Assembly: GCA_963678065.2 (NCBI GenBank)
Contig: CAXXVZ010000004.1
Coordinates: 128,001 to 192,000, forward strand
Source: Treponemataceae bacterium
Lineage (GTDB): Bacteria; Spirochaetota; Spirochaetia; Treponematales; Rectinemataceae
Direction: 5' to 3'
DNA: 64,000 nt
Part shown: piece by piece, positions 1,255 through 18,997 of the stretch
Position numbering within the stretch: position 1 is the first letter of the stretch
How the letters are laid out: the number at the start of each line of letters is the position of its first letter
Notes under the pieces: generated by a model
Told to the model about the DNA's origin: nothing
Databases searched by the model: none
Seen by the model: only the letters and a program-made list of their open reading frames with translations
Program-made: the position numbers and the translations under genes

Positions 1255-2535
1255 TCAGATTTCGCGGGAGAGCAGGTCCGCGTAGGTTTCGCGCCTGACC
1301 GAAAGTCTGTCGACCCCGTCCAGCACCATCACGACTGCGGGGCGGGGAATGCGGTTGTAGTTGCTCGCCATCGAGTAGTTGTAGGCGCCCGTCGAAAAGA
1401 CCGCGAGGATGTCCCCCGATTCCGGCGGCGGTACGCAAAGATCGCGGATGAGGATATCGCCCGATTCGCAGCATTTTCCCGCGACGGTCACGACCGTGTC
1501 GGCCTGCAGACCGGCTTTGTTCGCGATGACTGCCCTATATTTTGCGTCATAGAGCATGGGGCGCGGATTGTCCGGCATTCCGCCGTCCACGCCGATGTAG
1601 GTCCGGATTCCGGGAATTTCTTTCACGGAACCGACTGTGTACAGGGTGATTCCCGCCTCTCCCACTATCCAGCGCCCCGGCTCGATGGTGACGACGGGCC
1701 TCGCCAGTCCCCAATCCAGGTAGCGACGCGAGATGAGTTCCATCATGGGGTCGACGAAATAGGAGAGCGGCTTCCGTTCGTCCGCCTCCGTGTACACGAC
1801 GCCGAACCCGCCGCCCAGATTGAGTTCGGCGACCTCGACCCCGAAATCGCCCCGGACCTTCTCCACGATGTCGAGAAGGATGCCGACGGCCTTCAGATGG
1901 GACTCGTTGTCGAGGAGCTGGGAACCGACGTGGAAATGGAATCCGGCGAAATCGAGGTTGCGCGCGGAGAGAATGGCTTCCATATACGTGCCGAAGACGG
2001 AGGGATCGAGGGGAATGCCGAACTTGGAATCGAGCTGGCCAGTCGATATGAACTTGTGGGTGTGGCTGTCGACGCCAGGGGTGATCCTGTACAGCACTCT
2101 GACCCGCCTGCCCTTTTCTCCGGCGATCCGGTCGAGTTCGCGGACTTCGTAGAGGCTGTCCGAGACGACGCGCCCGATCCCGGCCTCGACGGCCATCTCC
2201 ATCTCCGCCAGCGTCTTGTTGTTGCCGTGGAAAATGATGCGCGCGGCGTCGACGCCCGCTTTCAGCGCGCAATACAGCTCCCCTCCCGACACGGCGTCGA
2301 GTCCGAGACCTTCCGAGGCGACGATGCGGCACATGTCGAGAGTCTGGAAGGCCTTGCTCGCGAAAACGGCTTCGGTGCCGGGATAGCGTTCGAGGAAGTC
2401 CCGGCGGATCTCTCTCAGGCGGTCACGGATCTGCCCCTCGGACATGACATAGAGGGGGGTACCGTAGCGGCGGGCGAGTCCGGCGAGGTCGCATCCGTCA
2501 AAGAGTAGTGTGCCGTCACGAAGGGAATCTTCCAT
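1255..2535 (-). CDS. lysA: Diaminopimelate decarboxylase
   Basis: YGTPLYV, FASKAF (PLP Lys), HFHVGSQ, NLGGGFG, EPGR, AGKCCESGD, TGAYNYSMASNYN. Start MEDSL after AAGGAAGG. Confidence 0.93.
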   Translation of the reverse strand: MEDSLRDGTLLFDGCDLAGLARRYGTPLYVMSEGQIRDRLREIRRDFLERYPGTEAVFASKAFQTLDMCRIVASEGLGLDAVSGGELYCALKAGVDAARIIFHGNNKTLAEMEMAVEAGIGRVVSDSLYEVRELDRIAGEKGRRVRVLYRITPGVDSHTHKFISTGQLDSKFGIPLDPSVFGTYMEAILSARNLDFAGFHFHVGSQLLDNESHLKAVGILLDIVEKVRGDFGVEVAELNLGGGFGVVYTEADERKPLSYFVDPMMELISRRYLDWGLARPVVTIEPGRWIVGEAGITLYTVGSVKEIPGIRTYIGVDGGMPDNPRPMLYDAKYRAVIANKAGLQADTVVTVAGKCCESGDILIRDLCVPPPESGDILAVFSTGAYNYSMASNYNRIPRPAVVMVLDGVDRLSVRRETYADLLSREI

Positions 2536-2705
2536 ACTGACCGAACCTTCCTTAACCAAGATTTCACCGCATCGTAGCATACAGGATCAAAGTCCGCAAA
2601 GCGCTTTTTGGTCGGCGGATGACTTTCCATGCCGGTGGTTTCCGGTTTACCATCGAACTAGAGACGCGGACCCGCAACGGGAAAAACCAAACGAGGAGAA
2701 CCGGC

Positions 2706-3467
2706 ATGAAGCCTTCGATCGGACTGACAACCTTCAACGACTCGAAACCGAGGGCGAGCTACACTTCGGTCAGCAACCACTATGTCCGATCGATAGACGC
2801 GGCGGGCGGCCTGCCCTTCCCCATCCCCACAAGCACAGACCCGGAAACGATCCGCGATTACCTCGATCGGGTGGACGGACTCCTGTTCACGGGCGGCGTC
2901 GATGTCGCCCCCTGGCGTTTCGGCGAGGAGCCGATCCGCCAGCTCGGCAAGATCGGTTTCGACAGGGACGAGTGCGAGATCCGCCTCCTCGAGGGCGCTC
3001 TCGCGCGCGGGATGCCTGTCTTTGGCATCTGCAGGGGACACCAGCTCATCAACATCGCCCTGGGCGGTTCGGTATTCCAGGACATCCATGCCCAGAGGCC
3101 GGACTCAGGCGGCCACTACCCTGAAGACTTTCCGGTGGACGAACTCTACCACCACATCACGGTGGAGGATCCCGGCAGCATCCTCGCGAAAGTCTTCGGA
3201 ACGGGACGGCGACTTGTCAATTCCTTCCACCACCAGGCGCTGGACAGGGTGGCACAGACGCTCAAGGTCACCGCAATCTCGGATGATGGCCTGGCGGAAG
3301 CCTGCGAGCTGGCAAGCTCAGCCTCATCGGCAGTATCCGGCGCAAAACTACAATACCTCCACACGGTGCAATTCCATCCGGAAAGCCTCACAATTCGCTA
3401 TCCCGAGTTTCTGGGACTCTTCGTCGATTTCGTCGCAGCCTCCGCAGCATACGGCAGAAAACCCTGA
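2706..3467 (+). CDS. Peptidase C26 / gamma-glutamyl-gamma-aminobutyrate hydrolase family (PuuD-like)
   Basis: DGLLFTGGVDV, FGICRGHQ (catalytic Cys), VNSFHHQ, VQFHPE. GAGGAG RBS. Confidence 0.88.
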   Translation: MKPSIGLTTFNDSKPRASYTSVSNHYVRSIDAAGGLPFPIPTSTDPETIRDYLDRVDGLLFTGGVDVAPWRFGEEPIRQLGKIGFDRDECEIRLLEGALARGMPVFGICRGHQLINIALGGSVFQDIHAQRPDSGGHYPEDFPVDELYHHITVEDPGSILAKVFGTGRRLVNSFHHQALDRVAQTLKVTAISDDGLAEACELASSASSAVSGAKLQYLHTVQFHPESLTIRYPEFLGLFVDFVAASAAYGRKP

Positions 3468-3555
3468 ATATCCCTCGCGTCCACCGGGGTGCTCCCGGTC
3501 TCGATGGGTTTCGGTCACTTATTCGATGTTTTTTTAAAATTCGCATCCGATGCTC

Positions 3556-3592
3556 TTGACAGTTCAAAAAACATGCATTAACAATATGTTAA
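3556..3592 (+). promoter_or_regulatory. Promoter with palindromic operator candidate over the -10 region
   Basis: TTGACA at 3556-3561. TTAACA-ATA-TGTTAA inverted repeat at 3578-3592. Confidence 0.5.
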
Positions 3593-3658
3593 AGTGGCGT
3601 ATCTAATTACGCTAGTACAAAAAGTGCTGCAAACCGAAAGGGATGCAGGGAGGACAAA

Positions 3659-5794
3659 ATGTTTCAAATCTCTTCAGTCACCAGAAAGGTAAAGAATCCC
3701 AGGTCTCTCGGAATCGCTGTTATCGCGATGAGTGCAATCATTATTCTCGCCGGGTGTCATTTTGATTTCGGTGGCAGCAAAACCTATGCTTCCTTCAGCG
3801 ATCTCACCATTCCCGCAGGATTCGAATTCGCCACTGCCCGCGCAGTGACCTTCAATCTCACTGTCACGTACAATGGAGACTCCGGACTGAAGAATTATGA
3901 TGGAACGGTATCCATCGTGACTCAGGACGAGACGGGAGACTCCATCCTCGGATCGGGGCTCATCGTCAACGGCACAGGAAGCTTCTCAGTCGCCATTCCC
4001 ACCTCCGTCACCCATGTGGTCATCAGACCTGACAAACTGATCCTGGTCGGAGCTGAGGCCGATCTCGAGCCCGGCACAACTTCCATAACGAAGGTGCTCG
4101 CGCCTTCCTCCGACAAGGCAGTGGTCACTTCTGCCAAAGACCTTTTCTCTTCATCCGCTGCCCGCGCGGCCATCAGTTTCGGAACGACCAAAACAGGCTT
4201 CCGGACTCTTGCCACCTCTTTCGATTCTAACGGCGTTCCGACCGGCACTGGCGGGCTGGAATCCGCGAGGGTTGCGTACAAGGAATCCTTCCTCACCGAT
4301 ATTGGCTTGAGTTTCCCCGAATACCAGAGAGTTCCGACCGCCAGGCCCGATTACATCAAGAATGGCGTTCTCTCCAGCGTGGTCATCAAAGAGGATGCGG
4401 AAGTCGCGGTCACCTTCCTTTCGGAAGGCGCAGGATACAAGAATTCCCTCGGCTACTTCGTCCGCAAGACCGGCGAAGCGCTCACCAAGCCCTCCACCTC
4501 CGAGATCGTCATCATTTTTCCCAACTCCTCCGCGGCTTACTCGGGCGGCGGGCTCAATGGCGGCGACACGATCAAACTCCGCAATCCGATCGTAAGTGAC
4601 ACCACTAATTACGCGACAACGAAGTTCACGGCCGGCTATACGATCCATTGGGTTCTCGTTTCTGACGGCTACCGCTCCGGCACTGTCTCCTCCGACGCGA
4701 CTCGTTACTACTCAGTTCCCGAACTGAATCCCGAGTACTCGGGAACCGCCAGCAGCTCCGCCCATTCCGCCCTTCTCTTCTACACGGAAAGCCCCTATAG
4801 CGATTACAATTCTTCCACGGAGACGACGGAGGACGACGCCAAGCTCGTCCTCGGTTTCGAAGATATGGGTCGCAAGACCGGAGACGAGGACTTCAACGAC
4901 TGCCTCTTTGTGGTCACGGCCACACCCTTCAAGAACATCGATACTGAAAACCTCCCCAAGCCCAAGAAGGATGATCCAGACACCGAAATCACCGAGTCAT
5001 TCCCCGCCAAAGTCAACGGAACCATGGTCTACGAAGATCTCTGGCCGAGCAAGGGAGACTACGACTTCAACGACATGGCGGTAGAGTTCCGCATGCAGAC
5101 AATCCGCACCGGCAAAGGCTATGCCAACAAGTACAAGGGCGATTTCGTCCTCACCGCGGCGGGCGCCAATCTCAAGTCCGGACTCGGCTTCGTCCTGCCC
5201 GTCAAGCCCGAATACATCGAGAGCGTGAAATACACCGCCGGACAGGCCTACAACGGCACGGTCTTCGTGCTCAACAGCAGAAACTTCGAGTCCCACGGCA
5301 GCAGCTACAGCGTCATTCCCGTGATCGGCTCCGCGGTAGGTCTTTTTGGTTCGAACATCGTCAACACCAAGATGGATCAGCCGACCCTGTCGTCCATCAA
5401 GATCAACATCGAGGTCACTTTCACGAAGAACGCGGTTCTCGCGTCGGACATCACGGGCAAAACTCCGGATATCTTCCTCGTCTCGAGCGAGGACCGCACG
5501 AAGGAAATCCACGTGATCGGGAAGACCCCGACGAGCAAAGCCAGCGGCCGGTTTGATACGATGGACGACGCCTCCGTGCTTCCCGGCGGCCCCTACTACA
5601 AAGACAAGAGCGGAGCCCCTTGGGCGCTCATGATTCCCGCGCCTTTCAGCCACACCGTCGAACAGACCGAGCTCCCCGCCGGATATCTGCACTTCGGTGA
5701 CTGGGTCGTGAGCGGTGGACTCAAGTACACCGACTGGTACGACAGCAGTCTGAGCGGATACACGGACGCTTCCAAGCTCTACGTGGCGCACTGA
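3659..5794 (+). CDS. LruC-domain (DUF4842, with DUF4114-like region) lipoprotein, copy 1
   Basis: Lipobox IILAGC; EGAGYKNSLGYF; LGFED...DEDFND; YEDLWPSKGDYDFND; EIH; PWAL; DWY. Confidence 0.85.
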   Translation: MFQISSVTRKVKNPRSLGIAVIAMSAIIILAGCHFDFGGSKTYASFSDLTIPAGFEFATARAVTFNLTVTYNGDSGLKNYDGTVSIVTQDETGDSILGSGLIVNGTGSFSVAIPTSVTHVVIRPDKLILVGAEADLEPGTTSITKVLAPSSDKAVVTSAKDLFSSSAARAAISFGTTKTGFRTLATSFDSNGVPTGTGGLESARVAYKESFLTDIGLSFPEYQRVPTARPDYIKNGVLSSVVIKEDAEVAVTFLSEGAGYKNSLGYFVRKTGEALTKPSTSEIVIIFPNSSAAYSGGGLNGGDTIKLRNPIVSDTTNYATTKFTAGYTIHWVLVSDGYRSGTVSSDATRYYSVPELNPEYSGTASSSAHSALLFYTESPYSDYNSSTETTEDDAKLVLGFEDMGRKTGDEDFNDCLFVVTATPFKNIDTENLPKPKKDDPDTEITESFPAKVNGTMVYEDLWPSKGDYDFNDMAVEFRMQTIRTGKGYANKYKGDFVLTAAGANLKSGLGFVLPVKPEYIESVKYTAGQAYNGTVFVLNSRNFESHGSSYSVIPVIGSAVGLFGSNIVNTKMDQPTLSSIKINIEVTFTKNAVLASDITGKTPDIFLVSSEDRTKEIHVIGKTPTSKASGRFDTMDDASVLPGGPYYKDKSGAPWALMIPAPFSHTVEQTELPAGYLHFGDWVVSGGLKYTDWYDSSLSGYTDASKLYVAH

Positions 5795-5815
5795 CCCTTG
5801 CCGATCCGAAAGCAG

Positions 5816-5844
5816 AGGACCGCCCTCCCGGGCGGTCCTTTTTT
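5816..5844 (+). terminator. Rho-independent terminator
   Basis: AGGACCGCCC-TCCC-GGGCGGTCCT followed by a T-tract. Confidence 0.85.
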
Positions 5845-5976
5845 GGACCCGCGCGGAAGGCATCGTGGAGCTTCCCTTCATTGGTATTCAGACCATACAT
5901 CGCGTATACTCTTAGAAGAGAGGCTTCGCCGCAGCATCTCTTGTTCACTCGAAGGCGACGGACACTGGAGGCTCCT

Positions 5977-8238
5977 ATGAAGTTCGGATCGACTCATAGT
6001 GGCAAAAAAGCTGCTACAGCGGGAAACGCGGGCAAGAGCATACTGTTCGCCCTCCTTTTTCTTCCCATCATCGTCTTGGGGGGTTGCCATTTTCAGCTCG
6101 GAGGCGACCGCAGCTACCAGCCTCTGGATGAGGTGACCATCCCGACGGGTTTCACCTTCGCCATGAACCGCGTGGTGGAGTTCAAACTCACCGTCATGGC
6201 CCTGGACGACACCGACACCCTTGTTCCCTATGTCGGCCCCGTGCATGTCGTCAATCCGGCTGAAACGGGAGACGAGAACCTCGGGACCGGCTGGACCGAT
6301 GCCGCGGGTCTGGCCGACTTCACCGTCACCATACCTTCGTCAATCTCGACGATAACCCTCAGACCCGAGCAGACATCTTTGGACGGACTTTGTCTCCTTT
6401 CGGACTTCGACCAGACCCTCGAAGCCGGCACCACCTCAGTCGTGAGGACACTCGCGCCTTTCGTCGGTTCCGGCACTTCCTCAGCCTCATCATCGGCCGC
6501 GCGGGGCGCGGCTTCCAGTTCCAGGGCATCCACCCCTGTAGCCTTCGTGGATTCAGGAACCGGCTACCTGATGCTTTCGACCTACGACACGACAACCGGC
6601 GTTCCTTCCGGCCTCGAGACCCCGCGACCGTATTTCTCCTTCAAGCAATCCTTCAAGAAGAATGTCAGCTTCACCTTTCCCGAGGGCAAAAAAGTTCCTG
6701 ACAGCTACATCAACACGGGAGACCTGACAAACATCATTCTCGACGCTGCAGCAAAGATATCGGTCACGATGGCGAGCGAGAGTTCGGCCACGAAGGACGC
6801 CGTAGGCTATTTCGTCCGCAAGAAGACGACCATCCCCAGCTCTGCCTCTGAGATCGCAGCATCCGATATCGTGATCATGTTCCCCAACGCTTCGCTCTAC
6901 GGCTCGGGCGGCGGGCTCTACCAGGGAGATACGATACAGCTCAGAAACCCCGACCCGACCTCCGCCAATTACCGGACGACCACCTTCGACAAGGATATGG
7001 TTGTTTCCTGGGTTCTCATTCCCGCGTCTTTTGTCGGGGGGAAAATCACGACTCCCGGCAGGCGCTACTATTCCATTCCAGCCCTCAATCCCGAGAGCGG
7101 CACGAGCCTCCAGAGGGCGCACGTGGCGCAGCTCCTGTACAACAAGCCGCCCTACAACAAGGATAAATCGTTTTTCCTGCTCGGTTTCGAAGACTCGCTG
7201 CGCAGCACGACCGAGGACGGAGACTACAACGACGACTTCAACGACCTGATGCTCACGGTCGATGTCTCGCCTGTATCCGCCGTCAATTCGTCGGGGCTGC
7301 CTGAGGTGAAGGACGAAACACAGGTCGGCGACGCCGATGGGGATGGCGTGATCGACGCCTTCGACGAGTACCCTTCCGATCCGGCGCGCAGCTCTAGCGT
7401 CTCATATCCATCCAGAACCGGCTACGCCACGGCCATATACGAGGATCGGTGGCCGGGACTGGGCGATTACGACTTCAACGATCTCGCCGTCGATTTCCGC
7501 TTCACCACAGTCAGCAATGCCGCAGGAAAGATTGTCGACCTCATCGGCAATTTCAAAATCCGCGCGGCGGGAGGAGAACTCAAGTCCGGCCTGGCCTTCA
7601 CCCTTCCCGTCGCCTCGTCGTCCATCACGTCGGTCAGCTACTCCACAAAGCAGATCGATACGGCCCTTTTCAAACCCGGAACCAACGGAGTGGAAACGAC
7701 GGGAAGCAAGTCGGTGGTGCCCGTGTTCTCCAACGCCCATCTTCTCTTCGGCGTCACGGGAATCGAGTTCGTCAACACCGATCCCTCCATCGCCGTCAGG
7801 GCCCCTGTATATCTCACCCTCACGACTTCCTTCAGCCAGACTTCGCCTGTTTCATCTTCCGTCATCGCGGGCTCCATACCGGACCTCTTCCTCATCGGCT
7901 TCCTCGATCTCCATGGCAGAACCGGAATGAGAAAGGAAATCCACACCCTCGACAACATCCCGACAACCCTCGCGGATTCCTATCCCTTCGGTCAGCTCGA
8001 CGACCGATCCCCTACCCCTCCGGCTTCCGGTATCTACTACAAGGACAAACGGGGAGCCCCCTGGGCCCTCCTCCTTCCGTCGTCGATACAATACACTGTG
8101 GAGAAGACACAGCTGGCCACAGCGTACAAGTACTTCTCGCAGTGGGTCTATTCCGGCGGCGTGGATTATCCGGACTGGTACAATTACAGTAAAGCCGGAT
8201 ACGCCGATTCATCGAAGCTCTACCTGATCGAAAAGTGA
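5977..8238 (+). CDS. LruC-domain lipoprotein, copy 2, with a TSP3-like Ca-binding repeat
   Basis: GGAGG RBS; lipobox IVLGGC; GDADGDGVIDAFDEYPSDP; YEDRWPGLGDYDFND; PWAL; DWY. Confidence 0.85.
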   Translation: MKFGSTHSGKKAATAGNAGKSILFALLFLPIIVLGGCHFQLGGDRSYQPLDEVTIPTGFTFAMNRVVEFKLTVMALDDTDTLVPYVGPVHVVNPAETGDENLGTGWTDAAGLADFTVTIPSSISTITLRPEQTSLDGLCLLSDFDQTLEAGTTSVVRTLAPFVGSGTSSASSSAARGAASSSRASTPVAFVDSGTGYLMLSTYDTTTGVPSGLETPRPYFSFKQSFKKNVSFTFPEGKKVPDSYINTGDLTNIILDAAAKISVTMASESSATKDAVGYFVRKKTTIPSSASEIAASDIVIMFPNASLYGSGGGLYQGDTIQLRNPDPTSANYRTTTFDKDMVVSWVLIPASFVGGKITTPGRRYYSIPALNPESGTSLQRAHVAQLLYNKPPYNKDKSFFLLGFEDSLRSTTEDGDYNDDFNDLMLTVDVSPVSAVNSSGLPEVKDETQVGDADGDGVIDAFDEYPSDPARSSSVSYPSRTGYATAIYEDRWPGLGDYDFNDLAVDFRFTTVSNAAGKIVDLIGNFKIRAAGGELKSGLAFTLPVASSSITSVSYSTKQIDTALFKPGTNGVETTGSKSVVPVFSNAHLLFGVTGIEFVNTDPSIAVRAPVYLTLTTSFSQTSPVSSSVIAGSIPDLFLIGFLDLHGRTGMRKEIHTLDNIPTTLADSYPFGQLDDRSPTPPASGIYYKDKRGAPWALLLPSSIQYTVEKTQLATAYKYFSQWVYSGGVDYPDWYNYSKAGYADSSKLYLIEK

Positions 8239-8251
8239 GGGAAGAGGGCTC

Positions 8252-9199
8252 TCAGCAGGCCGCCGGTTCGAGATACTCCAGAAGCAGGGCTTCGGCGTCC
8301 ATGCCGACCCGCAGCCCGAGGGGAAGGGTCAGCTTGGGAGTGCAGTGCCCCACGGCGAGGTTGGCCAGGACGGGCTTGTCCCCGGGGAGGATGTCGCGGA
8401 AGACCTCGGCGAGTTCCAGCGATTTCTTGCCGGGGGCGGAGGCGCAATTGTTCCAGTCCCCGAGGACGACGCCGCGGCATTCCCGGAAAACACCGGCCAG
8501 CCTCAGCTGGGTGAGCATCCTGTCGACGCGGTAGGGCGCCTCGTCGATATCCTCGAGGAAGAGGATGCTCTCACGCGCGTCGATCTGCCAGGGCGTGCCG
8601 ATAGTGGCCGCGACGAGTGAGAGGTTGCCGCCCGTGAGCCGGCCTTCGGCGCGGCCCGGCACGAGGCATTTGAGCTCTCTTCCGGGGGGATTGTCGATCC
8701 TGCCGAGAGCTTCGGTGGACCCGAGCGCCGCAAGAAGGCTACTGGCCGAAAATTCGTCGAAATCGGGGATCATGTCCGAGGAGGGCATGGGGCCGTGGAA
8801 GCTCACGAGAGAAGAGAGGCGGTTGATCCCAAGGTGTATCGCCGTGATGTCGCTGTAGCCGACAAAGGCTTTCGGATTGCGGGCGATCATGTCCCAGTCG
8901 ATCATGTCGAGAATGCGGGGCGTGCCGTATCCACCCTTGAGGCAGATGATGCCGTCGATCCCGGGGTCGGCGAAGAGGGCGTTGAGGTCGTTCGCGCGGG
9001 TCTTGTCGGAGCCCGCGAGGTAACCGTAGGAATCCGCGCAGCCGGGAGCCACGACGACCTCGAAGCCGAGGGCCCGCAGTTTTTCGACAGCCAGACCCAC
9101 GCGGGCGGGTTCGGATACGGAGCCTGATGGAGCGCAGAGCCCGAGGGTGGCGCCCGGACGCAGGGCGGCAGGCTTTTTCAAGACAGGTTTGGCGTTCAC
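8252..9199 (-). CDS. ldcA: LD-carboxypeptidase (peptidase S66, LdcA/MccF family)
   Basis: APSG, KGGYG, GYSDIT (Ser), GGNLSL, LFLEDIDE (Glu), GH, TLPLG. Confidence 0.9.
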   Translation of the reverse strand: MNAKPVLKKPAALRPGATLGLCAPSGSVSEPARVGLAVEKLRALGFEVVVAPGCADSYGYLAGSDKTRANDLNALFADPGIDGIICLKGGYGTPRILDMIDWDMIARNPKAFVGYSDITAIHLGINRLSSLVSFHGPMPSSDMIPDFDEFSASSLLAALGSTEALGRIDNPPGRELKCLVPGRAEGRLTGGNLSLVAATIGTPWQIDARESILFLEDIDEAPYRVDRMLTQLRLAGVFRECRGVVLGDWNNCASAPGKKSLELAEVFRDILPGDKPVLANLAVGHCTPKLTLPLGLRVGMDAEALLLEYLEPAAC

Positions 9200-9224
9200 G
9201 GTTTCTCCTTGTCCATGGATTCAA

Positions 9225-10082
9225 TCAGTATGTGAACAGCATGAACACGAGGACATCGTTCCAGTTTCCGGAGCTGAACTCCACCTCGTGCGGGCCGAGA
9301 GCGCGGGCGCCAGGGAAAAAGGATGCCTTGTAGGCTTGCCAGTGTTCCTTGAAGCGCGTCCTGAGAATGAAGCGTGGCGGGAGCTCGAAAAGGCTGGCAG
9401 GACCGGAGGAACCGGCATCGGCGGAGCTGACATCGCCAGGCGAGTTGGTGGAAGCACGCGCGTTGGCAAAGATGGCTTCGGCGACGGTCTTCCGGATGCG
9501 CTCCCGCGCGAGGCGGGGATGGATGGAGACAGAAGCACCGCCCGATCCCTCGCTGACGGCCACTGTCCTTATGCCGCATCCGAGAGCTTCGGCGCCCGCG
9601 CAGAGCATGGCATCCCCCGAGAGGAAGAGGACAGGCACACCGAGAGAGGCCGCGGTGTAGGTGTTGATGAGGAACTCGCTTGCGTCGACCCCGTTGATCG
9701 TGGAGGTAATAATCTGTCCGCTCATGGTGTGGGAGAGGGGGTTGCCGTCGGTGTTGGCGCCCGAGTGGTAGCCGATGAAGAGCACACCGTCGAAGCTCGA
9801 ATCGAGTCCCGCCATCATGACCTTGGGATCGCGGGTCCAGCCCCGCATGATCCGCACATTTTCCGGAAGAAGGGAGGGATCGATGCTCCGGGCCGAGCCG
9901 TGGGCGTCCTTGATGAGTATTTCCCGCACGCCGGCGGAGTTCGCTCCCTCGCAGGCGGCCGCGACCTCCTCGGACATCTCCCTGCGGAAGTAGGCTCCCT
10001 GGGGCTCTGCGAGGTCGGTTTCCTTCCAGTCGTCGATGCCGCAGACTCCTTCGATATCGGCGCTTATGTAGAGTTTTTTCAT
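9225..10082 (-). CDS. D-aminopeptidase (peptidase M55, DppA family)
   Basis: YISADIEG, DAHG, FIGYHS, LSHT, LSGD. ATG 10082 after GAGGAG. Confidence 0.9.
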   Translation of the reverse strand: MKKLYISADIEGVCGIDDWKETDLAEPQGAYFRREMSEEVAAACEGANSAGVREILIKDAHGSARSIDPSLLPENVRIMRGWTRDPKVMMAGLDSSFDGVLFIGYHSGANTDGNPLSHTMSGQIITSTINGVDASEFLINTYTAASLGVPVLFLSGDAMLCAGAEALGCGIRTVAVSEGSGGASVSIHPRLARERIRKTVAEAIFANARASTNSPGDVSSADAGSSGPASLFELPPRFILRTRFKEHWQAYKASFFPGARALGPHEVEFSSGNWNDVLVFMLFTY

Positions 10083-10090
10083 GGTTCTCC

Positions 10091-11269
10091 TCACCTGCCC
10101 AGAAGGCGCAGGGTGATTCCGGCCTGCATCGCGACGCCGATGGGGAGGCAGTCCTCGTCGATGTCGAACATGCCGTTGTGCAGGGGCGCCGTGATGCCGC
10201 GCTCGGCGTTCATGCAGCCGAGATGGTAGAAGGCTCCCTCTCTCTCGTTCACGAAATACGAAAAATCCTCGACACCCATGCTCGGCTTTTCGCGGTGGAC
10301 GATCCTGTCCTTTCCCAGAAGCTCTTCCGCGGTCGCGATGATGGCGTCGACGGTGAAGTCGTGGTTTATGAGAGCGCGGTAGCCGTGCTCGACGACGAGC
10401 TCCCCCGAGCCGCCGAAGACTTTCGGGATGGAGGTCACGATGTCCCCGGCCATGGCGATGAGGCGCTCCTCGACTGCCGGGTCCGTCGTACGCAGGGTCG
10501 CCTTCATCGTCACCTCGTCGGCGATGATGTTGCTCGTCGCGCCTCCCGAGATGGTCCCGATGCTGAGCACAGCCGCGTCCAAGGGAGAGACGTAGCGGGA
10601 GACGAGGGAATGGAGGGCCGTCACGACGTGGCCGGCAATCATAATCGCGTCGATGCCGAGGTCGGGGTAGGCGCCGTGGGCGCTTTTGCCTTTTATGGCG
10701 ATGTGGAGGGTGTCGCTCGAGCCGTTCAGGGCCCCGTATTTCACTTCGACGGAGCCTGTGGGCACGTGGGGCATGACGTGAAGGCCTATGACGAAGTCCA
10801 CATGGGGGTTCTCGAGACAGCCGTCGCGGATCATGTCGGCGGCACCGCCAGAGGTCTCCTCGGCCGGCTGGAAGAAGAATTTCACTGCGCCCGCGAGGCT
10901 CTCGCGGCGCTCTGCGAAGTAGCGCGCGGTCCCGAGGAGGATCGCCGTGTGCGCGTCGTGGCCGCAGGCGTGCATGAAGCCAGGGTGAGTGGAGGCCCAC
11001 GCGGGCTGCCTCTCCTCGCGTATGGGCAGCGCGTCCATGTCCGCGCGGATGGCCACGGTCTTGCCCGGCGCAACGCCCCGGACGATGCCGACGATGGCTG
11101 TGGCCCTCTTCTCGTACTCGATGCCCAGACCGTCGAGCCAGGCGGCTATGGCGGCAGAGGTCTTGAGCTCTTCGTGCCCGGGCTCGGGTATCCTGTGCAG
11201 AGCCCGGCGGACTTCGACGAGCCAGTCTTTCATGCCTGCCGCGGCCGCGAGCAGAGCGTCTTTTTCCAT
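10091..11269 (-). CDS. M20D amidohydrolase
   Basis: RRALHRIPE, RADMDALP, MHACGHDAH, FQPAEE, EDFS, LHNGMF. Confidence 0.9.
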   Translation of the reverse strand: MEKDALLAAAAGMKDWLVEVRRALHRIPEPGHEELKTSAAIAAWLDGLGIEYEKRATAIVGIVRGVAPGKTVAIRADMDALPIREERQPAWASTHPGFMHACGHDAHTAILLGTARYFAERRESLAGAVKFFFQPAEETSGGAADMIRDGCLENPHVDFVIGLHVMPHVPTGSVEVKYGALNGSSDTLHIAIKGKSAHGAYPDLGIDAIMIAGHVVTALHSLVSRYVSPLDAAVLSIGTISGGATSNIIADEVTMKATLRTTDPAVEERLIAMAGDIVTSIPKVFGGSGELVVEHGYRALINHDFTVDAIIATAEELLGKDRIVHREKPSMGVEDFSYFVNEREGAFYHLGCMNAERGITAPLHNGMFDIDEDCLPIGVAMQAGITLRLLGR

Positions 11270-11297
11270 GCATATCCTCCACGCTGCGATTGTTGGC

Positions 11298-11360
11298 ACC
11301 GGGACCCTGTCCCGGTCCGGCCGGGTCCGATCGACTTACCCCGCAGCGAGCTGCGGGGTA
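11298..11360. other. Two GC-rich intergenic hairpins
   Basis: ACCGGGAC-CCT-GTCCCGGT (11298-11316) and TACCCCGCAGC-GA-GCTGCGGGGTA (11337-11360). Confidence 0.6.
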
Positions 11361-11383
11361 TGACCCCACTTTCCCGAATCATT

Positions 11384-12559
11384 TCATCTCAGATAGTCAG
11401 TGATTCCGACAGTCTCTCCGCCTTTCGCGTAGACGCGGGGAATGCGCCTTCCGAGAACCGCCATAATCTCGTTCCGGTTCGTCCCGGCGAGACTCGCGAG
11501 CTCGAGGACAGGGACGCCCGTCTCCGGTCCTCCTCCGAGCAGGAGGACTTCATCGCCTTCGGTGACGCCGGGGATGGCCGACACGTCGACATTCATCTGG
11601 TCCATGCAGATAAGGCCGATGACGGGGGCGCGCTTGCCGCGAATGATGACAGAGGCCTTGTTGGAAAAACAGCGCATGTAGCCGTCCGCGTATCCAATGG
11701 GGATGGTCGCGACGAGGGCGCCGGCGGGGGGGGCGACCCAGGAGGCGTCGTAGGATACGCATTCGCCCGCCCCGACCTTCCGTATGCGGGAGATGTCGGA
11801 TTTGAGACAGAGGGCGGGCGCGATGTCCAGGGCATCGGTGGAGGGCTCGGTCCTGAGCGGCTTCATCCCGAAGAGGATGGCTCCCACCCTCACCATGTCG
11901 AGCCGGAACTCGGGATAGCGCAGGAATCCTATGCTGTCGCAGATATGGCAGAGCGGGATGTCGACCCCCGCCTGTTCGAGGGCCGTGGCCGTGCGAAAAA
12001 AGTTCTCGGCCTGACGGATGTCGGATTCGCGGTCGCGCAGGGCAAGATGCGTAAAAAGTCCCTCGACCTGGATTTCCCTGTGCCCGCTCAGCGCGAGGAC
12101 GGCCCTGACGGGATCGTCGTACTCCTTGAGGCCGAGGCGGTTCATGCCCGTGTCGAGCTTGACGTGGACGATGGCCTTCTCGTGGCTGGCGCGGGAGGCG
12201 GCGACGAGAAGCTCGGCCTGCTCGGGCTTGAACACGGTGAGAGTGATCCTGCAGGCGACCGCGAGGCCGAGAAGCCTGTCGGGGGTGTGTCCCATGACCA
12301 TGATCCGGGCTTCGGGATAGTGTTGCCTCAGTTCAAGGGCTTCTCCGAGGAAGGCCACGGCCAGCATGTCCGCGCCATGGTCCAGGAGTTCACCCGCCAC
12401 GGCGATAGCCCCGTGGCCGTAGGCGTTGGCCTTGAGGACGCAGGCGACTTTGGTCTTGCTTCCTTTCAGGACTGACTTGACCGTGTCCAAGTTGCGCCCG
12501 ATCCTGTCGAGATCTACTTCCAGTCTTGTGCTGCGCAGAAGTTCGATGCCTGTTCTCAT
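11384..12559 (-). CDS. alr: Alanine racemase-family amino acid racemase (divergent copy)
   Basis: VLKANAYGHG, KLDTGMNRLG, VSYD, GYADG, ICMDQ. Confidence 0.85.
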   Translation of the reverse strand: MRTGIELLRSTRLEVDLDRIGRNLDTVKSVLKGSKTKVACVLKANAYGHGAIAVAGELLDHGADMLAVAFLGEALELRQHYPEARIMVMGHTPDRLLGLAVACRITLTVFKPEQAELLVAASRASHEKAIVHVKLDTGMNRLGLKEYDDPVRAVLALSGHREIQVEGLFTHLALRDRESDIRQAENFFRTATALEQAGVDIPLCHICDSIGFLRYPEFRLDMVRVGAILFGMKPLRTEPSTDALDIAPALCLKSDISRIRKVGAGECVSYDASWVAPPAGALVATIPIGYADGYMRCFSNKASVIIRGKRAPVIGLICMDQMNVDVSAIPGVTEGDEVLLLGGGPETGVPVLELASLAGTNRNEIMAVLGRRIPRVYAKGGETVGITDYLR

Positions 12560-13719
12560 GCCTCGTCCTCCTTTTTCCTTTCCGTCCGCCCTTCCCCCTC
12601 GTTCACATAAACCCTCGGGACCCGCTTGCCGACCATGCAGACAGTTTCATAGTTGATGGTGCCCATGCGCGCGGCGACATCGTCCGCGCCTATTCCGGCA
12701 GCGCCGAACAGCAGAACCTCGTCCCCGACCGAGGCGCCGGGACAGTCGGTCAGGTCGATCATAGTCTGGTCCATGCAGATCCTGCCGACCACGGGTGCAC
12801 GCCGCGATCCGAGAAGGACCTCCGACTTTCCTGCGAGGAGCCTGGACCATCCGTCGGCATAGCCCACGGGGAGAGTGCCGATGAGGCTCTCACGCTGCGC
12901 GGTCCAGGCGCATCCGTAGCTGACGGGGGTTCCCGCCGCAATCCTGCGGATCTGGACGATTCTCGTCTTGAAGCTCATGACCGGACTCAGTTCGATCTTC
13001 CCCTCCATCTCCGTCCTTGTCTCCGGCGAAGGCCACAGACCGTACAGGGCGATGCCTGGCCTCACCATGTCGAGGTGCGTTTCGGGGTAGCGGATCGTCG
13101 CCGCGCTGTTGGCGATGTGCCTCAGGCGGATCGCGAGCCCCGCCTTCCTGAGTTCGCCTTCGATGCCGAGGAAGCGCCCCAGCTGGAATCTGACAAAGGC
13201 CGGCCCGCTCTCGTCGGCTGTGGCGAAATGCGAGTAGATGCCCTCGATCGCGATTCCGGGCAGGCGGGAGGCGGCCAGGATCTGGGCGACGGCGCTTTCC
13301 GGCGAAAAGCCGAGGCGCGACATTCCGGTGTCGATCTGGACGTGGACAGTCAGGGGTTTGTGCGCACAAAGCGCGGCTTCGGAAAACACCGCGGCAGATT
13401 CAGGCGAGTACAGAGTGGCGGAGAGTCGCCTTTCGATCAGTTCGGGGACCTCGTCCGGAGCGACGGCCCCCATCACGAGGATAGGGACAGTCATTCCGCC
13501 ATCGCGCAGGGCCAGGGCTTCTTCGGCGGTGGCGACGGCGAGACGGCGGGCTCCGGCCGCAAGCGCGGCCCGGGCAATCCGGAGCGCACCGTGGCCGTAG
13601 GCGTCGGCCTTGACGACGGCGCAGAGCTCCGTCCCCGCGGGGAGCAGAGATGCAAGCGCCCTGACATTATGTCCCAGGGCGGCGAGATCGATTTCCGCCC
13701 AGACGAGCCTTTCCGGCAT
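12556..13719 (-). CDS. alr: Alanine racemase (canonical copy)
   Basis: VVKADAYGHG, DTGMSRLG, SHFATAD, HIANSAA, VSYG, GYADG, GRICMDQ, GTINYE. Its stop overlaps the next start (ATGA). Confidence 0.92.
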   Translation of the reverse strand: MPERLVWAEIDLAALGHNVRALASLLPAGTELCAVVKADAYGHGALRIARAALAAGARRLAVATAEEALALRDGGMTVPILVMGAVAPDEVPELIERRLSATLYSPESAAVFSEAALCAHKPLTVHVQIDTGMSRLGFSPESAVAQILAASRLPGIAIEGIYSHFATADESGPAFVRFQLGRFLGIEGELRKAGLAIRLRHIANSAATIRYPETHLDMVRPGIALYGLWPSPETRTEMEGKIELSPVMSFKTRIVQIRRIAAGTPVSYGCAWTAQRESLIGTLPVGYADGWSRLLAGKSEVLLGSRRAPVVGRICMDQTMIDLTDCPGASVGDEVLLFGAAGIGADDVAARMGTINYETVCMVGKRVPRVYVNEGEGRTERKKEDEA

Positions 13720-13788: not shown

Positions 13789-14952
13789 TTATAGTGCAGC
13801 GGGGTGACGCGGGGAAGTGAATTCCCGATCCCAGATCACGATGTCTGCCTGCATTCCAGGCTCGAGTCTCCCGCGTAGACTTCCCAGGCCGACGACGCGG
13901 GCGGGGGTGGATGTCAGGGCGAGGACGGAGGCCCACAGGGGAGCGCCGGTCGCGTCGAGCCAGGATCGGAGGATCTGGGGACCCAGCTTGTTGGAGCCCA
14001 TGAGGGTGTCTGTCTTCTCGTATCGGACACCTTTGGCAGCCGAGACGACTGTGTGCCCGAAATACTGGTAGGTGCCGAAGGGCAACCCCGCGGCCACGAC
14101 GGCGTCCGAGGTCAGCACGAGCCGCTCCGGGTCGATGCCTGCGGCGACGAGGCGCATGCATTCACGGTTGACGTGGATGGAGTCCGCGTTGAGTTCGACG
14201 GTGGAGCGCGTTTCCGAGAAAGCGAGGTTGGCGAGGCCGGCGTCCTTGTGGGAGATGCCCGACATGGCGTTGAACAGGTGGGTGATGGAGTAATCCCCAG
14301 GCGGCAGAGAACAGGTCGAAGGATCGCAGTCGGAGTGTCCGAGCGAGATCCTGACGCCCGCCTCTTCCAGGATGGGATAGATGTCTTTGACCCCGGGCAA
14401 TTCGGGCGCGACGGTCATGATCCGCAACTTTCCTCTCGTGATCGAGAGGATCTGCCTGAGGTAGCCGGCATCGACGGGGCGGATGAGATTTTCGGGGATT
14501 CCGCCGCGCCGTTTCGGGTTGACGAAGGGTCCCTCGATGTAGATTCCCGGAAGGACGCTTCCGGGAAGGCCCGATTCGTCGATCGCGTCGACGAGGGCGG
14601 AGAGCGCCCTCTCCTCGCACAGGAGGGTCGGGACGAAGGCCGTGACTCCCCGCGCGTACAGAAAATCGCGGACAGCCAGAATGTCGCTCCCGCCGCAGAC
14701 GGCGTCGAAGCCTATGCCTCCCGCGCCGTGAATGTGCATTTCCATGAAGCCAGGCGTCACGATCGCGCCGGCCGCGTCGATGCGCGGAAGACTGCCTGTC
14801 TTCGGCTCATCCGGCGCTCCGGCCTCGCCCGCCCACAGAATCCTGCCGTCGAGGACGACGAGGCGGCCGCCCTCCACTACCCTGTCGGGCAGGACGAGAG
14901 AGCCGCCCTCGATAACGTAGGATCGACCTTTGAAATAGGATTGACCTTTCAT
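13789..14952 (-). CDS. nagA: N-acetylglucosamine-6-phosphate deacetylase-like amidohydrolase (variant active site)
   Basis: HIHG, EGPF, TVAPE, GHS, THLFNAM, TSDA, GRLEPGMQAD. Confidence 0.75.
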   Translation of the reverse strand: MKGQSYFKGRSYVIEGGSLVLPDRVVEGGRLVVLDGRILWAGEAGAPDEPKTGSLPRIDAAGAIVTPGFMEMHIHGAGGIGFDAVCGGSDILAVRDFLYARGVTAFVPTLLCEERALSALVDAIDESGLPGSVLPGIYIEGPFVNPKRRGGIPENLIRPVDAGYLRQILSITRGKLRIMTVAPELPGVKDIYPILEEAGVRISLGHSDCDPSTCSLPPGDYSITHLFNAMSGISHKDAGLANLAFSETRSTVELNADSIHVNRECMRLVAAGIDPERLVLTSDAVVAAGLPFGTYQYFGHTVVSAAKGVRYEKTDTLMGSNKLGPQILRSWLDATGAPLWASVLALTSTPARVVGLGSLRGRLEPGMQADIVIWDREFTSPRHPAAL

Positions 14953-17192: not shown

Positions 17193-17222
17193 AGTGTGCC
17201 TCGCTGAAAGTGATGGCCGCCT

Positions 17223-18056
17223 CTAGCCTTTGACCCCGCCCGCCGAAATTCCGCGGATGAGGAACTTCTGCATCGAGACGGTGAATATGAAGACAGGCAG
17301 GAGCATGAGTGTGCCGGCAGCGCAGGCCTGGCCCCAGGTCAGGGTCTCGCCGCCGATGAGGCCGTTGATGGCTATCGGAGCTGTCTTGGCCTTGGTCCCG
17401 GTGAGGATGAGAGCGTAAAGGAACTCGTTCCAGCTGTTGATGAAGGCGAAAACCGCCGCGACGACGAGTCCGGGCGCGACCAGGGGAACGAAAATCCTGA
17501 AAAAGACGCCCATTCTCGTGCAGCCGTCGACCATGGCCGCCTCCTCGTAGCTCCGGTCCACCGCCGTGAAGAAAGGCAAGAGGAGCCAGATCACGTAGGG
17601 GACGTTGAAGCTTGTGTGCGCGAGGGAGATGCCGAAGAGCGTGTCCCTGATGCCCATGAACTTGAACATGAGGTAGAGGGCGATGACGAGGGATATCTGC
17701 GGCAGCATGCGGAAGACGAGGAAGCTGTAGGCGAGTCCGTTTCGCCAGCGGAAGCGGAAGCGCGCCACGCCGTAGGAGGCCATGGCGCCGACGAGGACGG
17801 AGAGGCCGGTCGAGAACAGGCCGACGATGATCGAGTTCTTCATGCCCAGGATGAAACCGGGGTTCTTGAAGATGAGCTCGTAGCTCCGGGTGGATATCTG
17901 GCTGAACCGGAAGGGCGCTCCCGAGAGGATGACGATATCTTTGCGGAAGCCGTTCACCAGGGTCAGGGCTATGGGATAGAGCTCGACCGCGAGGACGAGG
18001 AAGGCGACGATGGCTATGACGATGCTCGTGAGGGTCTTGCGGGTTCGCTTTTTCAT
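17223..18056 (-). CDS. Carbohydrate ABC permease
   Basis: EEAAMVDG EAA loop, SWNEF, hydrophobic helices. Confidence 0.9.
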   Translation of the reverse strand: MKKRTRKTLTSIVIAIVAFLVLAVELYPIALTLVNGFRKDIVILSGAPFRFSQISTRSYELIFKNPGFILGMKNSIIVGLFSTGLSVLVGAMASYGVARFRFRWRNGLAYSFLVFRMLPQISLVIALYLMFKFMGIRDTLFGISLAHTSFNVPYVIWLLLPFFTAVDRSYEEAAMVDGCTRMGVFFRIFVPLVAPGLVVAAVFAFINSWNEFLYALILTGTKAKTAPIAINGLIGGETLTWGQACAAGTLMLLPVFIFTVSMQKFLIRGISAGGVKG

Positions 18057-18997
18057 CGTGTGCCCGCCTTTTCTTCAAGTGTGTCGAGGCTCATGTTTTT
18101 CCGCACCAGGGTGAGGGCGAATGCTATGGAGATCACGAGGAGGAAGATGGCCATGGCGCTCGCCATGCCGACCTTCTGGTAGCTGAAGGCCTGCCTGTGG
18201 GTGTAGAGAGAGAAGAGCAGCGTCGCGCTCCCCGGCCCTCCTTCCGTCATGACGTAGACCTCGCTGAACACGCGCAGCGCGTCGATGATCCTGAGGAGCA
18301 CCGCGGTGAGAATAGTCGGGGTCAGCATCGGAACGATGATGAGCCTGAGCTTTTTGAAGAAGGTCGCCCCGTCGATGTCGGCGGCCTCGATCATCTCGCC
18401 CGGGATGGCCGTGAGGCCGGCGTAGAGCATCATGAACATGAAGGGCCACATGCGCCAGATGTCCTGGACGATCATCGCGACGTAAGCCCACACGGGATCG
18501 CCGAGCCAGGTTATCTCGGGCGCCCCAAGGGTAAGGAGGAGCTTGTTGAGCGATCCGTAGCGCGGCTGGAGCATAAAGCGCCAGGTCATGCCCGAAAGGA
18601 TGGGCAGGAAGAACACGGGAAGGAGGAGAAGCGTCCGCACGACGCGGGCTCCGAAGAATTCCCTGTTGAGAAGGAGGGCAGCCGCGAATCCGAAGAGCAG
18701 CTCGACGGGAATGGCGATGAAGATGAATCCGAGCTGGAGCTTGAGGCTGTTCCAGAACTCAGGATCCTTGGACAGGGCAAGGTAGTTGCCCAGTCCCACG
18801 AATTTCCGCACACCGGCTCCTTCGGAGAGCGGCCAGTCGAAGCCGGACACGAAGAAGGAGAAGAGAATCGGGAAGATCAACACCGCAAAGACGATCACGA
18901 GCGCCGGGGCCAGGAAAAGGAAAGGCGCAGATTCCTGCGCCTTTCCACTCTGATCAGTCCCGGAGCCCGGCTTAGTACCCGGCCTTTTTGAGGACAT
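18053..18997 (-). CDS. Carbohydrate ABC permease
   Basis: FVGLGNY, EAADIDGA, TEGGPG. Confidence 0.9.
   Translation of the reverse strand: MSSKRPGTKPGSGTDQSGKAQESAPFLFLAPALVIVFAVLIFPILFSFFVSGFDWPLSEGAGVRKFVGLGNYLALSKDPEFWNSLKLQLGFIFIAIPVELLFGFAAALLLNREFFGARVVRTLLLLPVFFLPILSGMTWRFMLQPRYGSLNKLLLTLGAPEITWLGDPVWAYVAMIVQDIWRMWPFMFMMLYAGLTAIPGEMIEAADIDGATFFKKLRLIIVPMLTPTILTAVLLRIIDALRVFSEVYVMTEGGPGSATLLFSLYTHRQAFSYQKVGMASAMAIFLLVISIAFALTLVRKNMSLDTLEEKAGTR

Follow-up and report, generated by a model that had tools for sequence, protein, structure and literature searches.

The M55 D-aminopeptidase DppA belongs to the dpp-ykf locus of Bacillus subtilis. In that locus, dppABCDE-ykfABCD, an S66 peptidase (YkfA) is encoded together with an epimerase (YkfB), an NlpC/P60 protein (YkfC) and a peptide ABC transporter for the cytoplasmic breakdown of stem peptides, and in Escherichia coli the LdcA-MpaA-YcjG-PepD branch takes the tetrapeptide to the tripeptide and then to DAP, Ala and Glu (PMC2954226). 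In Staphylococcus aureus, a dap block links the M20 deacetylase, alr2 (DapF2) and lysA families, which are also linked in the locus described here. S. aureus is not known to encode DapF.

The locus lies in the window, that is, the whole analysed stretch of 64,000 nt (Treponemataceae bacterium contig CAXXVZ010000004.1, positions 128,001-192,000), and, judging from its gene content, it probably encodes a modified form of the murein-peptide catabolism known from the Bacillus dpp-ykf locus. It resembles the B. subtilis system in its linked S66 and M55 genes, its relatives' peptide transporter and the predicted cytoplasmic breakdown, and the E. coli branch in the chemistry proposed below, but it lacks YkfC and YkfB and comprises M20D, C26, an Alr-fold racemase, lysA and, in relatives, dapF. 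As the initial annotation had proposed, the route appears to be independent of MpaA and YcjG: searches of the genome revealed no clear orthologue of MpaA, YkfC, YcjG, Mpl or AmpD, and the best YcjG-like match (C5:4954-5985) is devoid of the C-terminal DLD motif common to YcjG and the L268 protein. The two NlpC/P60 genes of the genome lie outside the window and have a single Pfam domain each; none was found in the window or among the scanned neighbours of alr2 loci, and an AE-epimerase-like gene was present in 1 of 71 such loci.

Five closely spaced minus-strand genes (one 4-nt overlap, gaps of 8-115 nt) form the core of the locus. They encode an S66 LD-carboxypeptidase of the LdcA/YkfA family (8252-9199; PF02016 and PF17676, S116/E216/H285; PRK11253 175 bits, under the cut-off of 378), an M55 D-aminopeptidase of the DppA family at a distance of 25 nt (9225-10082; PF04951 E 1.6e-75, metal motifs; 121 bits, under the DppA equivalog cut-off of 430), an M20D amidohydrolase that is a candidate N-acyl-DAP amidohydrolase (10091-11269; TIGR01891, metal ligands, R260), an Alr-fold racemase of a separate clade, here Alr2 (11384-12559; K43/Y270 kept), and the sole canonical alanine racemase found in the genome (12556-13719; INYE and HIANS motifs, TIGR00492 393 bits). 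The same-strand run extends upstream through a nagA-like deacetylase gene (13789-14952; TIGR00221 173 bits, under the cut-off of 226), a GH31 YihQ-like alpha-glucosidase gene overlapping it (14949-17177; PRK10426 883 bits, cut-off passed) and, at its head, the genes for two permeases and the binding protein of a sugar ABC transporter (17223-20252). Also on the minus strand, lysA (1255-2535, alternative start 2580) encodes a predicted meso-DAP decarboxylase of cluster type with 426 aa, which passes TIGR01048 (441 bits versus a cut-off of 298), retains the FASK, HFHVGSQ, EPGR and CCESGD motifs and shares 58-69% identity with orthologues in relatives' clusters. On the plus strand, 2706-3467 encodes a gamma-glutamyl hydrolase of 253 aa with the class-I glutamine-amidotransferase fold, which belongs to peptidase family C26 by its PF07722 match and Cys-His-Glu triad (C109/H224/E226). 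All genes named in the initial annotation were thus confirmed by Pfam, NCBIfam and open reading frames, with intact catalytic motifs whose roles are those we presume for these families.

The grouping of these genes exceeds what chance would produce. In the 8 kb on either side of alr2-type loci, 71 in number, M20D was found in 52, S66 in 39, lysA in 28, C26 in 21 and M55 in 20, versus 1, 1, 0, 1 and 0, respectively, around 78 non-redundant ordinary alr loci used as a control, which were drawn from a scan of the genome collection that used the full racemase alignment, covered 1/64 parts and yielded 1 alr2 locus among 80. M20D directly follows alr2 in 44 of the 60 loci with downstream sequence. 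The order in relatives is nagA-alr-dapF-alr2-M20D-(M55)-S66 / C26 / lysA, often adjoining an Opp transporter, and among the 14 loci of relatives that contain both S66 and lysA, eight place lysA, C26 and S66 side by side in the orientation of the window without intervening LruC genes, which bears out the synteny anticipated earlier. Opp genes occur within 8 kb in 29 of the 71 loci, and lysC, dapA, dapB or dapD in none; the absence of these front-half genes, together with the frequency of S66, Opp and M55, indicates that peptide catabolism is the central theme of the cluster. In the source genome, the Opp orthologue lies outside the window (G000:C4:563162-569043); 7 of 17 relatives have this transporter beside the cluster. 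Likewise, an M19 dipeptidase gene located elsewhere (C4:790862) flanks it in 5 of 17. No sure gene for L-Ala removal or for splitting L-Ala-D-Glu was recognised within the window. The relatives are kin, so these counts are not independent, and absences are soft because most relatives are fragmented MAGs.

The reading towards which we lean is that the cluster serves the cytoplasmic disassembly of imported stem peptides, mainly foreign ones of the DAP type, and also completes the cell's own lysine synthesis. Reactions and substrates being judged throughout from gene identities, peptides would be imported by the Opp transporter encoded elsewhere in the source genome, S66 would take D-Ala off the tetrapeptide, M55 would split D-Ala peptides and the canonical Alr would convert D-Ala back to L-Ala. 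M20D would free DAP from gamma-D-Glu-DAP, the step of MpaA or YkfC, and would also desuccinylate the N-succinyl-LL-DAP delivered by the biosynthetic route; LysA would then convert meso-DAP to L-Lys. C26 would act as an accessory hydrolase on gamma-glutamyl peptides with a free alpha-amino group, and the second racemase would most likely invert D-Glu, free or gamma-linked. Of the scavenging route first proposed, this keeps the part that rests on synteny, on the missing known cutters and on the MurE motif described below, but neither the salvage-only origin of lysine nor C26 as the amidase.

The DNPR sequence is the DAP motif of MurE (PMC3681970), and the MurE of this genome has DEDPR in its place. 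Together with the failure to find Mpl in the genome, this suggests that the organism's own wall is probably free of DAP. Alternatively, the cluster could recycle peptides of the cell's own wall, probably of the ornithine type, or act on D-amino-acid and gamma-glutamyl peptides in general; Alr2 would then be a broad-spectrum racemase, and lysA and dapF would be linked for other reasons. S66, M55 and Alr need no DAP specificity, the nagA-like gene is co-oriented and in many relatives likewise immediately precedes alr, and some alr2 loci combine Opp and C26 or gamma-glutamyltranspeptidase (GGT) without S66 or lysA. We nonetheless hold this explanation to be very improbable, since lysA is attached to 28 of the 71 alr2 loci in distant groups, including genomes in which no genes for DAP synthesis were found, and beyond the family only 1 of 24 genomes has S66. 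Many relatives within the order lack the whole cluster, which argues against its being required for wall turnover in spirochaetes at large.

The initial annotation had noted no other dap gene, which holds for the window but not for the genome, and had asked whether dapA, dapB and dapF are missing: dapA and dapB are present, and dapF was not found. Indeed, a genome devoid of DAP synthesis is ruled out by a lysC-dapB-dapA-dapD operon led by a lysine riboswitch and by asd. DapE, DapF, Ddh and DapL were not found in the genome, leaving DapE and DapF as the only steps of the DAP route unaccounted for and no recognised DAP epimerase for de novo synthesis. Given this riboswitch-led front half and a second lysA-like gene in the genome, LysA is not salvage-only here, as had been suggested; by contrast, in G049 (99% complete) and G031 (96%) lysA remains in the cluster and searches for orthologues of dapA, dapB and dapD and for Ddh and DapL found none, a pattern that does fit salvage.

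The gene content also accommodates an explanation in which the core is the back half of lysine biosynthesis, M20D is a deacylase, Alr2 is a DapF2-type DAP epimerase standing in for the lost dapF, and the peptidases are housekeeping enzymes with no close tie to the core. The S. aureus operon holds the same three families (M20-alr2-lysA), its DapF2 complements dapF (PMC13759103), a natural DapF-Alr2 fusion exists (P0107), and the reduced clusters L071-L074, L076 and L079 retain only biosynthetic-looking genes, nagA-alr-(dapF)-M20D-lysA. Against it, DapF stands alongside Alr2 in 14 of 17 family-level loci, Alr2 tracks S66 (18/18) and not dapD, and clusters persist in genomes without dapB and dapD. 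The staphylococcal block is not orthologous (29% identity for M20, 26% for Alr2) and adjoins lysC-asd-dapABD, which alr2 clusters never do, adjoining instead S66, M55 and Opp genes. S. aureus Alr2 also falls outside the clade and lacks its motifs; Alr2 as a staphylococcal DapF2 was therefore rejected, and we consider this explanation as a whole distinctly unlikely.

In the reading we favour, the Ser/Ser DapF of relatives would convert LL-DAP, and dapF would have been lost from the source genome. The relatives carry this gene between alr and alr2, at the site of the 4-nt overlap (12556-12559, minus strand), where no credible remnant was detected (best local E 0.008). A misassembly is unlikely because contigs from two runs, one of them maybe the source sample, bridge the junction; one of these contigs, 596 nt long and showing 2 differences, belongs to run X17, which comes from another study. 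As a usual cluster member missing from the window, dapF was invisible to the initial annotation.

Alr2 passes TIGR00492, yet lacks the canonical Tyr354 and the HxANS/INYE motifs. The Tyr354 position is Asn363, preceded by Arg or Lys, and HxCDS replaces HxANS; Asn occupies this position in all 90 ungapped clade members, whereas 93 of the 104 aligned ordinary Alr sequences have Tyr there. With 69 tips and a support of 0.998 (FastTree, 147 sequences), the second racemase thus forms a clade of its own with a predicted rebuilt pocket. An AlphaFold model searched with Foldseek confirmed the Alr fold, with a pLDDT below 50 in loop 355-364, which contains Arg362/Asn363. The same Tyr354-to-Asn change broadens Alr specificity in the serine racemase VanT (PMC4542195), a point in favour of a broad-spectrum enzyme recycling own-wall peptides; unlike VanT, Alr2 scores 297 bits, under the cut-off of 460, has no membrane domain and no van genes seen nearby, and the residue before Asn is Arg/Lys and not Thr. 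Against D-Glu as the substrate, the fusion P0107 is a hint that Alr2 acts on DAP, and with MurI encoded in the genome the cell has less need of another Glu racemase.

The best candidate for the amide cut is M20D, whose metal ligands are conserved and whose R260 aligns with R260 of 4EWT. Among 61 genomes, M20D was found in 27: all nine that lack S66 have dapD, all six that lack dapD have S66, and none of the 25 with neither gene has M20D. This constant association suggests that M20D may be a dual cutter of gamma-Glu-DAP and succinyl-DAP. M20D is not indispensable, since no M20D orthologue was found in G013 (97% complete), which does carry S66, Alr2, C26 and lysA; in that genome C26 might take over the step. 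Nine genomes with dapD have no M20D orthologue match, namely G007, with a fragment at a contig end, and eight others in which a different decarboxylase follows dapD. In DapD-encoding Bacteroidota, a 4EWT-related M20-family amidohydrolase complements dapE (PMC13759103), and the Arg highlighted there is present in the window M20D. Echvi_1427, an alternative DapE of Bacteroidota (GapMind 2026), was compared through 4EWT features: both proteins are 4EWT-related, with metal ligands and the carboxylate-binding Arg, and both occur in DapD genomes without DapE, but the operon that contains M20D is peptide-catabolic, and M20D is also retained where dapD is missing.

The same scavenging route could instead rely on C26 as a dedicated gamma-D-Glu-DAP cutter, possibly after Alr2 inverts D-Glu, with M20D as a biosynthetic deacylase or general dipeptidase. 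C26 and S66 track each other in the 61 genomes (17/19 each way; Alr2 occurs in 18, all with S66), C26 lies between lysA and S66 in the 8 of 14 loci mentioned above, the fold hydrolyses gamma-glutamyl amides, and the cluster-linked C26s form one clade (30 tips, support 0.96) that includes low-GC alr2-adjacent copies; G013 also fits. On the other hand, by hand count only 1 of 14 well-flanked low-GC S66 clusters has C26 or GGT at a distance of up to 8 kb, and only 1 of 6 low-GC C26/GGT clusters has S66, although the missing genes may lie elsewhere, and the family genomes G008 and G027 have S66, M20D, dapF and lysA without a C26 match. C26 retains the Cys+4 Gln and NS-x-H strand of SpuA and Lin1909, and the equivalent site of GGP1 binds a glutamyl group with free alpha-amino and alpha-carboxyl groups (PMC12958103), which makes action on an L-Ala-capped tripeptide doubtful; nor did C26 show signs of a D-specific pocket. 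We therefore regard this version as rather unlikely, and the amidase role first given to C26 as doubtful. As low-GC S66 clusters mostly lack C26 and M20D is nearly constant, C26 is probably not the only gamma-D-Glu-DAP amidase.

The closest structures to C26 are Lin1909, SpuA and PuuD, with which it shares the fold, triad and glutamyl-binding motifs; an AlphaFold model with Foldseek confirmed the fold and nothing further. Identity with the gamma-glutamyl-GABA hydrolase PuuD was rejected on its score (84 bits, under the equivalog cut-off of 266), the absence of puu neighbours and its own clade. Four alr2 loci have GGT no more than 8 kb away, beside or replacing C26, and in Cetobacterium a glutamate racemase gene adjoins lysA-M20D on a 21-kb stretch with no alr2. 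Literature searches, which left most subscription papers outside, returned no report of C26 in peptidoglycan recycling and, by title and abstract, nothing on C26 or M20D in the gamma-D-Glu-DAP step.

Disposal of stem peptides by anaerobic communities is poorly mapped, and a cluster without the known cutters MpaA and YkfC provides a short list of testable enzymes in spirochaetes and Clostridia-like anaerobes. The family of the source genome has been linked to necromass recycling in PMC6052044, which holds nothing on cell wall, murein or lysine. It is conceivable, but as a combination unlikely, that anaerobic necromass feeders possess a third, MpaA- and YkfC-independent murein-peptide route uniting M20D as dual cutter, the Alr-fold clade as a PLP-dependent racemase for D-Glu or gamma-D-Glu-DAP that feeds C26/GGT, and a DapL-linked LysA paralogue that decarboxylates LL-DAP directly, allowing dapF loss in the source genome. 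Confirmation of the functions proposed for the cluster would provide a new gamma-D-Glu-DAP amidase and a new Alr-fold specificity and fill the DapE and DapF gaps of spirochaete lysine pathways; were M20D and C26 unremarkable, a rearranged dpp-ykf-like operon would still remain. The DapL-linked LysA paralogue was seen in genomes without DapF, and the same searches returned no report of an LL-DAP decarboxylase.

No riboswitch was found at the cluster itself, and a terminator scan was near chance (15 versus 10.2 +/- 3.4). RNA-library contigs cover 27/30 and 29/30 region bins and are uninformative on transcription, strand or level. Two LruC-domain proteins are encoded on the plus strand between C26 and S66 (3659-5794, TIGR04456, lipoprotein-like N-terminus; and 5977-8238, NCBIfam, 38% identity to the first). 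With no LruC match in 57 relative loci (L053-L109), the pair was ruled out as a pathway member; it is an insertion found in the source genome only, and a promoter-like site with 10/12 matches (3556-3585) precedes its first gene.

All genes named in the initial annotation were recovered by Pfam and NCBIfam scans: lysA (1255-2535, minus strand), a C26 hydrolase (2706-3467, plus), two LruC-domain proteins (3659-8238, plus), S66 (8252-9199, minus), M55 (9225-10082, minus), M20D (10091-11269, minus) and two Alr-fold racemases, alr2 (11384-12559, minus) and the ordinary alr (12556-13719, minus). The minus-strand genes are packed: neighbours overlap by 4 nt or are separated by 8-115 nt. The same run extends into nagA-like, GH31 and sugar-ABC genes. 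The active-site motifs of the cluster enzymes are intact on sequence inspection, and their N-termini are not strongly hydrophobic, unlike those of the LruC proteins. The LruC tandem (3556-8238; 38% identical, DUF4114 and DUF4842, lipobox-like N-termini) is inserted between C26 and S66 with its own promoter-like site; GC is lower and skew shifted in this insert, and no other LruC copies were found in the genome. The racemase operon is preceded by a sugar ABC transporter, a YihQ-like GH31 and a divergent nagA (13789-20252). The GH31 scores above the PRK10426 cut-off and carries a sulfoquinovosidase-like W-x-QDW...QRLRW motif; yihQ, nagA and alr are likewise linked in L070 and L076. A tRNA gene (20482-20567, plus) is followed by a short ORF and a shift in local gene content, and an azaaromatic (yjdF) riboswitch (79.5 bits) lies at 59722-59821 (minus).

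Synteny is conserved among 17 de-duplicated relatives carrying alr2. Within 8 kb of this gene, M20D was found in 15/17, S66 and dapF in 14/17 each, lysA in 12/17, C26 in 11/17, M55 and Opp in 7/17 each and an M19 dipeptidase in 5/17, the usual order being nagA-alr-dapF-alr2-M20D-(M55)-S66, with C26 on the opposite strand and then lysA. The contiguity expected in relatives lacking the LruC pair was observed, since the exact lysA-C26-S66 arrangement occurs in 8 of the 14 loci with S66 and lysA, and LruC is present in none of the 57 relative loci screened. In the relatives' cluster dapF, Ser replaces both catalytic Cys in all 12 copies examined (L054-L069, e.g. L061:6258-7148); such Ser/Ser DapF enzymes are already known (PMC13728532). 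The present genome has lost dapF, and its alr and alr2 overlap at a junction that a contig from another study also bridges. Six reduced clusters, all in dapD genomes, comprise only nagA-alr-(dapF)-M20D-lysA. Most of the named proteins nearest to Alr2 belong to MAGs of Rectinemataceae and other spirochaetes, which suggests Rectinemataceae as the family of this genome.

Outside the family, 3 of 399 genomes scored in a search across the class of a Faecalibacterium-labelled MAG gave a match, and a metagenome motif scan confirmed 288 stretches, the best 80 of which were taken. Another 54 non-redundant alr2 loci, of which some are spirochaete-like, gave neighbour counts that are lower bounds because many contigs are short: M20D at least 37, S66 at least 25, Opp at least 22, lysA at least 16, M55 at least 13, C26 at least 10, dapF at least 7, GGT at least 4 and AE-epimerase at least 1, with MpaA in 0/54 of these often short contigs. 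Among 78 control loci of ordinary alr, M20D, S66 and C26 appeared once each, and lysA, M55 and Opp in none. No lysC, dapA, dapB or dapD was detected near alr2 in 71 loci, and Pfam scans of 55 of the 79 unassigned neighbours and part of the remainder revealed no NlpC/P60 or M14 beside it. In six low-GC clusters (L237, L249, L251, L255, L262 and L265), an SpmA/SpmB-like Gate-domain membrane pair immediately precedes S66 and may transport wall peptides or DAP.

The initial annotation had tentatively assigned cleavage of gamma-D-Glu-DAP to C26. In favour of this, C26 matches S66 in 17/19 genomes each way, and the C26 proteins form a cluster-linked clade (support 0.96), a result that is partly circular as loci were picked around the cluster. 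Against C26 as the only cutter, hand counts on low-GC contigs (GC < 0.53, flanks of 8 kb or more) gave C26 or GGT within 8 kb in only 1/14 S66 clusters and S66 in only 1/6 C26/GGT clusters, and two relatives' genomes (G008 and G027) have S66 and no C26 match. Moreover, C26 resembles an ordinary Lin1909/SpuA-type enzyme in sequence and fold, and the related GGP1 binds glutamyl with free alpha-amino and alpha-carboxyl groups (PMC12958103). A link between C26 and peptidoglycan recycling was not found in titles and abstracts of the open literature. In the reading we prefer, a cytoplasmic disassembly of murein peptides, M20D would act on both gamma-Glu-DAP and succinyl-DAP, which are chemically both N-acyl-DAPs. 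M20D directly follows alr2 in 44 of 60 loci, and its orthologue, found in 27 of 61 genomes (kin included, hence not independent), occurs solely alongside S66, dapD or both: all nine M20D genomes without S66 have dapD, all six without dapD have S66, and none of the 25 genomes without both carries it. An M20-family enzyme related to 4EWT replaces DapE (PMC13759103), and the M20D of the window retains the Arg highlighted in that study. Against M20D count G013, a relative holding S66, C26 and lysA and no M20D orthologue, and nine dapD genomes without an M20D match.

The premise that this organism lacks DAP synthesis failed genome-wide. A lysC-dapB-dapA-dapD operon (G000:C5:91990-95936) lies downstream of a lysine riboswitch (80.8 bits), and asd is located on contig C3; DapA and DapD exceed their profile cut-offs, whereas DapB reaches 121.4 against 122 bits. 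The genome makes DAP at least halfway. Genome searches yielded no DapF, Ddh or DapL and no clear DapE, and the deacylase and epimerase steps have no assigned gene outside the window. About 6 kb beyond the operon, a tRNA-Sec (L005:18102-18189) sits beside selA/selB-like genes. Ornithine is common in spirochaete walls, and a Borrelia abstract agrees. The organism's own wall is probably without DAP, because its MurE carries DEDPR, not the DNPR of DAP-adding enzymes (PMC3681970).

The proposal that LysA salvages lysine from scavenged DAP fares better in relatives than in this genome, with its lysC-dapB-dapA-dapD operon. The cluster lysA is present in G049 (99% complete) and G031 (96%, 690 contigs), in which no match for dapB, dapD, a DapA orthologue, Ddh or DapL was found; G027 (87%) is comparable. 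LysA would hardly be biosynthetic in such relatives. Judged from gene content, salvage is real in some relatives, and the cluster looks dual-use, serving scavenging and synthesis, because relatives without dapB and dapD matches keep lysA, and reduced clusters sit in dapD genomes. Necromass feeding is supported in a family member, with murein unmentioned in the available text of that source (PMC6052044).

Alr2 retains the catalytic Lys43 and Tyr270. The position of Tyr354, on which the side-chain selectivity of Alr and VanT depends (PMC4542195), is Asn in 90/90 ungapped Alr2 rows, preceded by Arg or Lys; Alr2 also has Asp in HxCDS, one of the two positions by which the class was assigned. The 69 Alr2 sequences group in a single clade (support 0.998) with S. 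aureus Alr2 outside it, so this racemase is not a DapF2 by origin, even though DapF2 demonstrates that the fold is capable of DAP epimerisation (PMC13759103). A first guess for the substrate is D-Glu, free or gamma-linked, since alr2 accompanies C26/GGT where lysA is absent and MurI lies beside lysA-M20D in Cetobacterium; against this, the genome already encodes MurI. Other candidates are DAP as substrate, for which a natural DapF-Alr2 fusion protein (P0107) speaks, and broad specificity. A related module in Cetobacterium somerae (L279:5839-13524) has lysA-M20-serine hydrolase-amidohydrolase facing murI and a permease of the C4-dicarboxylate type; it includes MurI, and the stretch contains no Alr2.

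Searches of the whole genome likewise revealed no clear MpaA or YcjG: E. coli MpaA, AmpD and Mpl as queries gave no orthologue, and the DLD motif is missing from the best-scoring YcjG-like protein. The matches to M14 (three) and NlpC/P60 (two) all lie in other contexts, and the genome also encodes MurQ, an AmiA-like amidase, MurI, six GGT-like genes and an M15 peptidase. The cluster would work like the murein-peptide branches dpp-ykf of B. subtilis and LdcA-MpaA-YcjG of E. coli (PMC2954226), but belongs to neither, being without YkfC and YkfB, and without MpaA and YcjG, respectively; it is similar, not orthologous, to the S. aureus M20-alr2-lysA block. Two parallel peptide-catabolic modules occur on contig C2 (620480-629119 and 320196-328706): in the former, a second C26 lies next to an Opp transporter and a further M20; the latter is an Opp operon with M20 that ends in a second M55.

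A second lysA-like gene (G000:C3:1460812-1462050 = L009:1486-2724, minus; 275 bits, below cut-off) carries HTMVASN, [SC]GR and GAHG where LysA has HxHxGSQ, EPGR and GAYG. This type was assigned by score band in 17/61 genomes (sequence-checked in six), 16 of which have DapL, adjacent in 13; of these 16, only 3 encode a DapF above its cut-off and none encodes a Ddh. Either the paralogue may decarboxylate LL-DAP, which would explain the loss of dapF in this genome, or some epimerase not yet recognised would have to exist. A different fold-III decarboxylase, nearest to TIGR03099 and below its cut-off, follows dapD in family genomes (L092:6592-7782, L095:4706-5929, L102:8088-9305 and L091:7975-9207), sometimes with an aminotransferase; these genomes are mostly without DapF and an M20D orthologue, and the enzyme is possibly part of an alternative back half of lysine synthesis.
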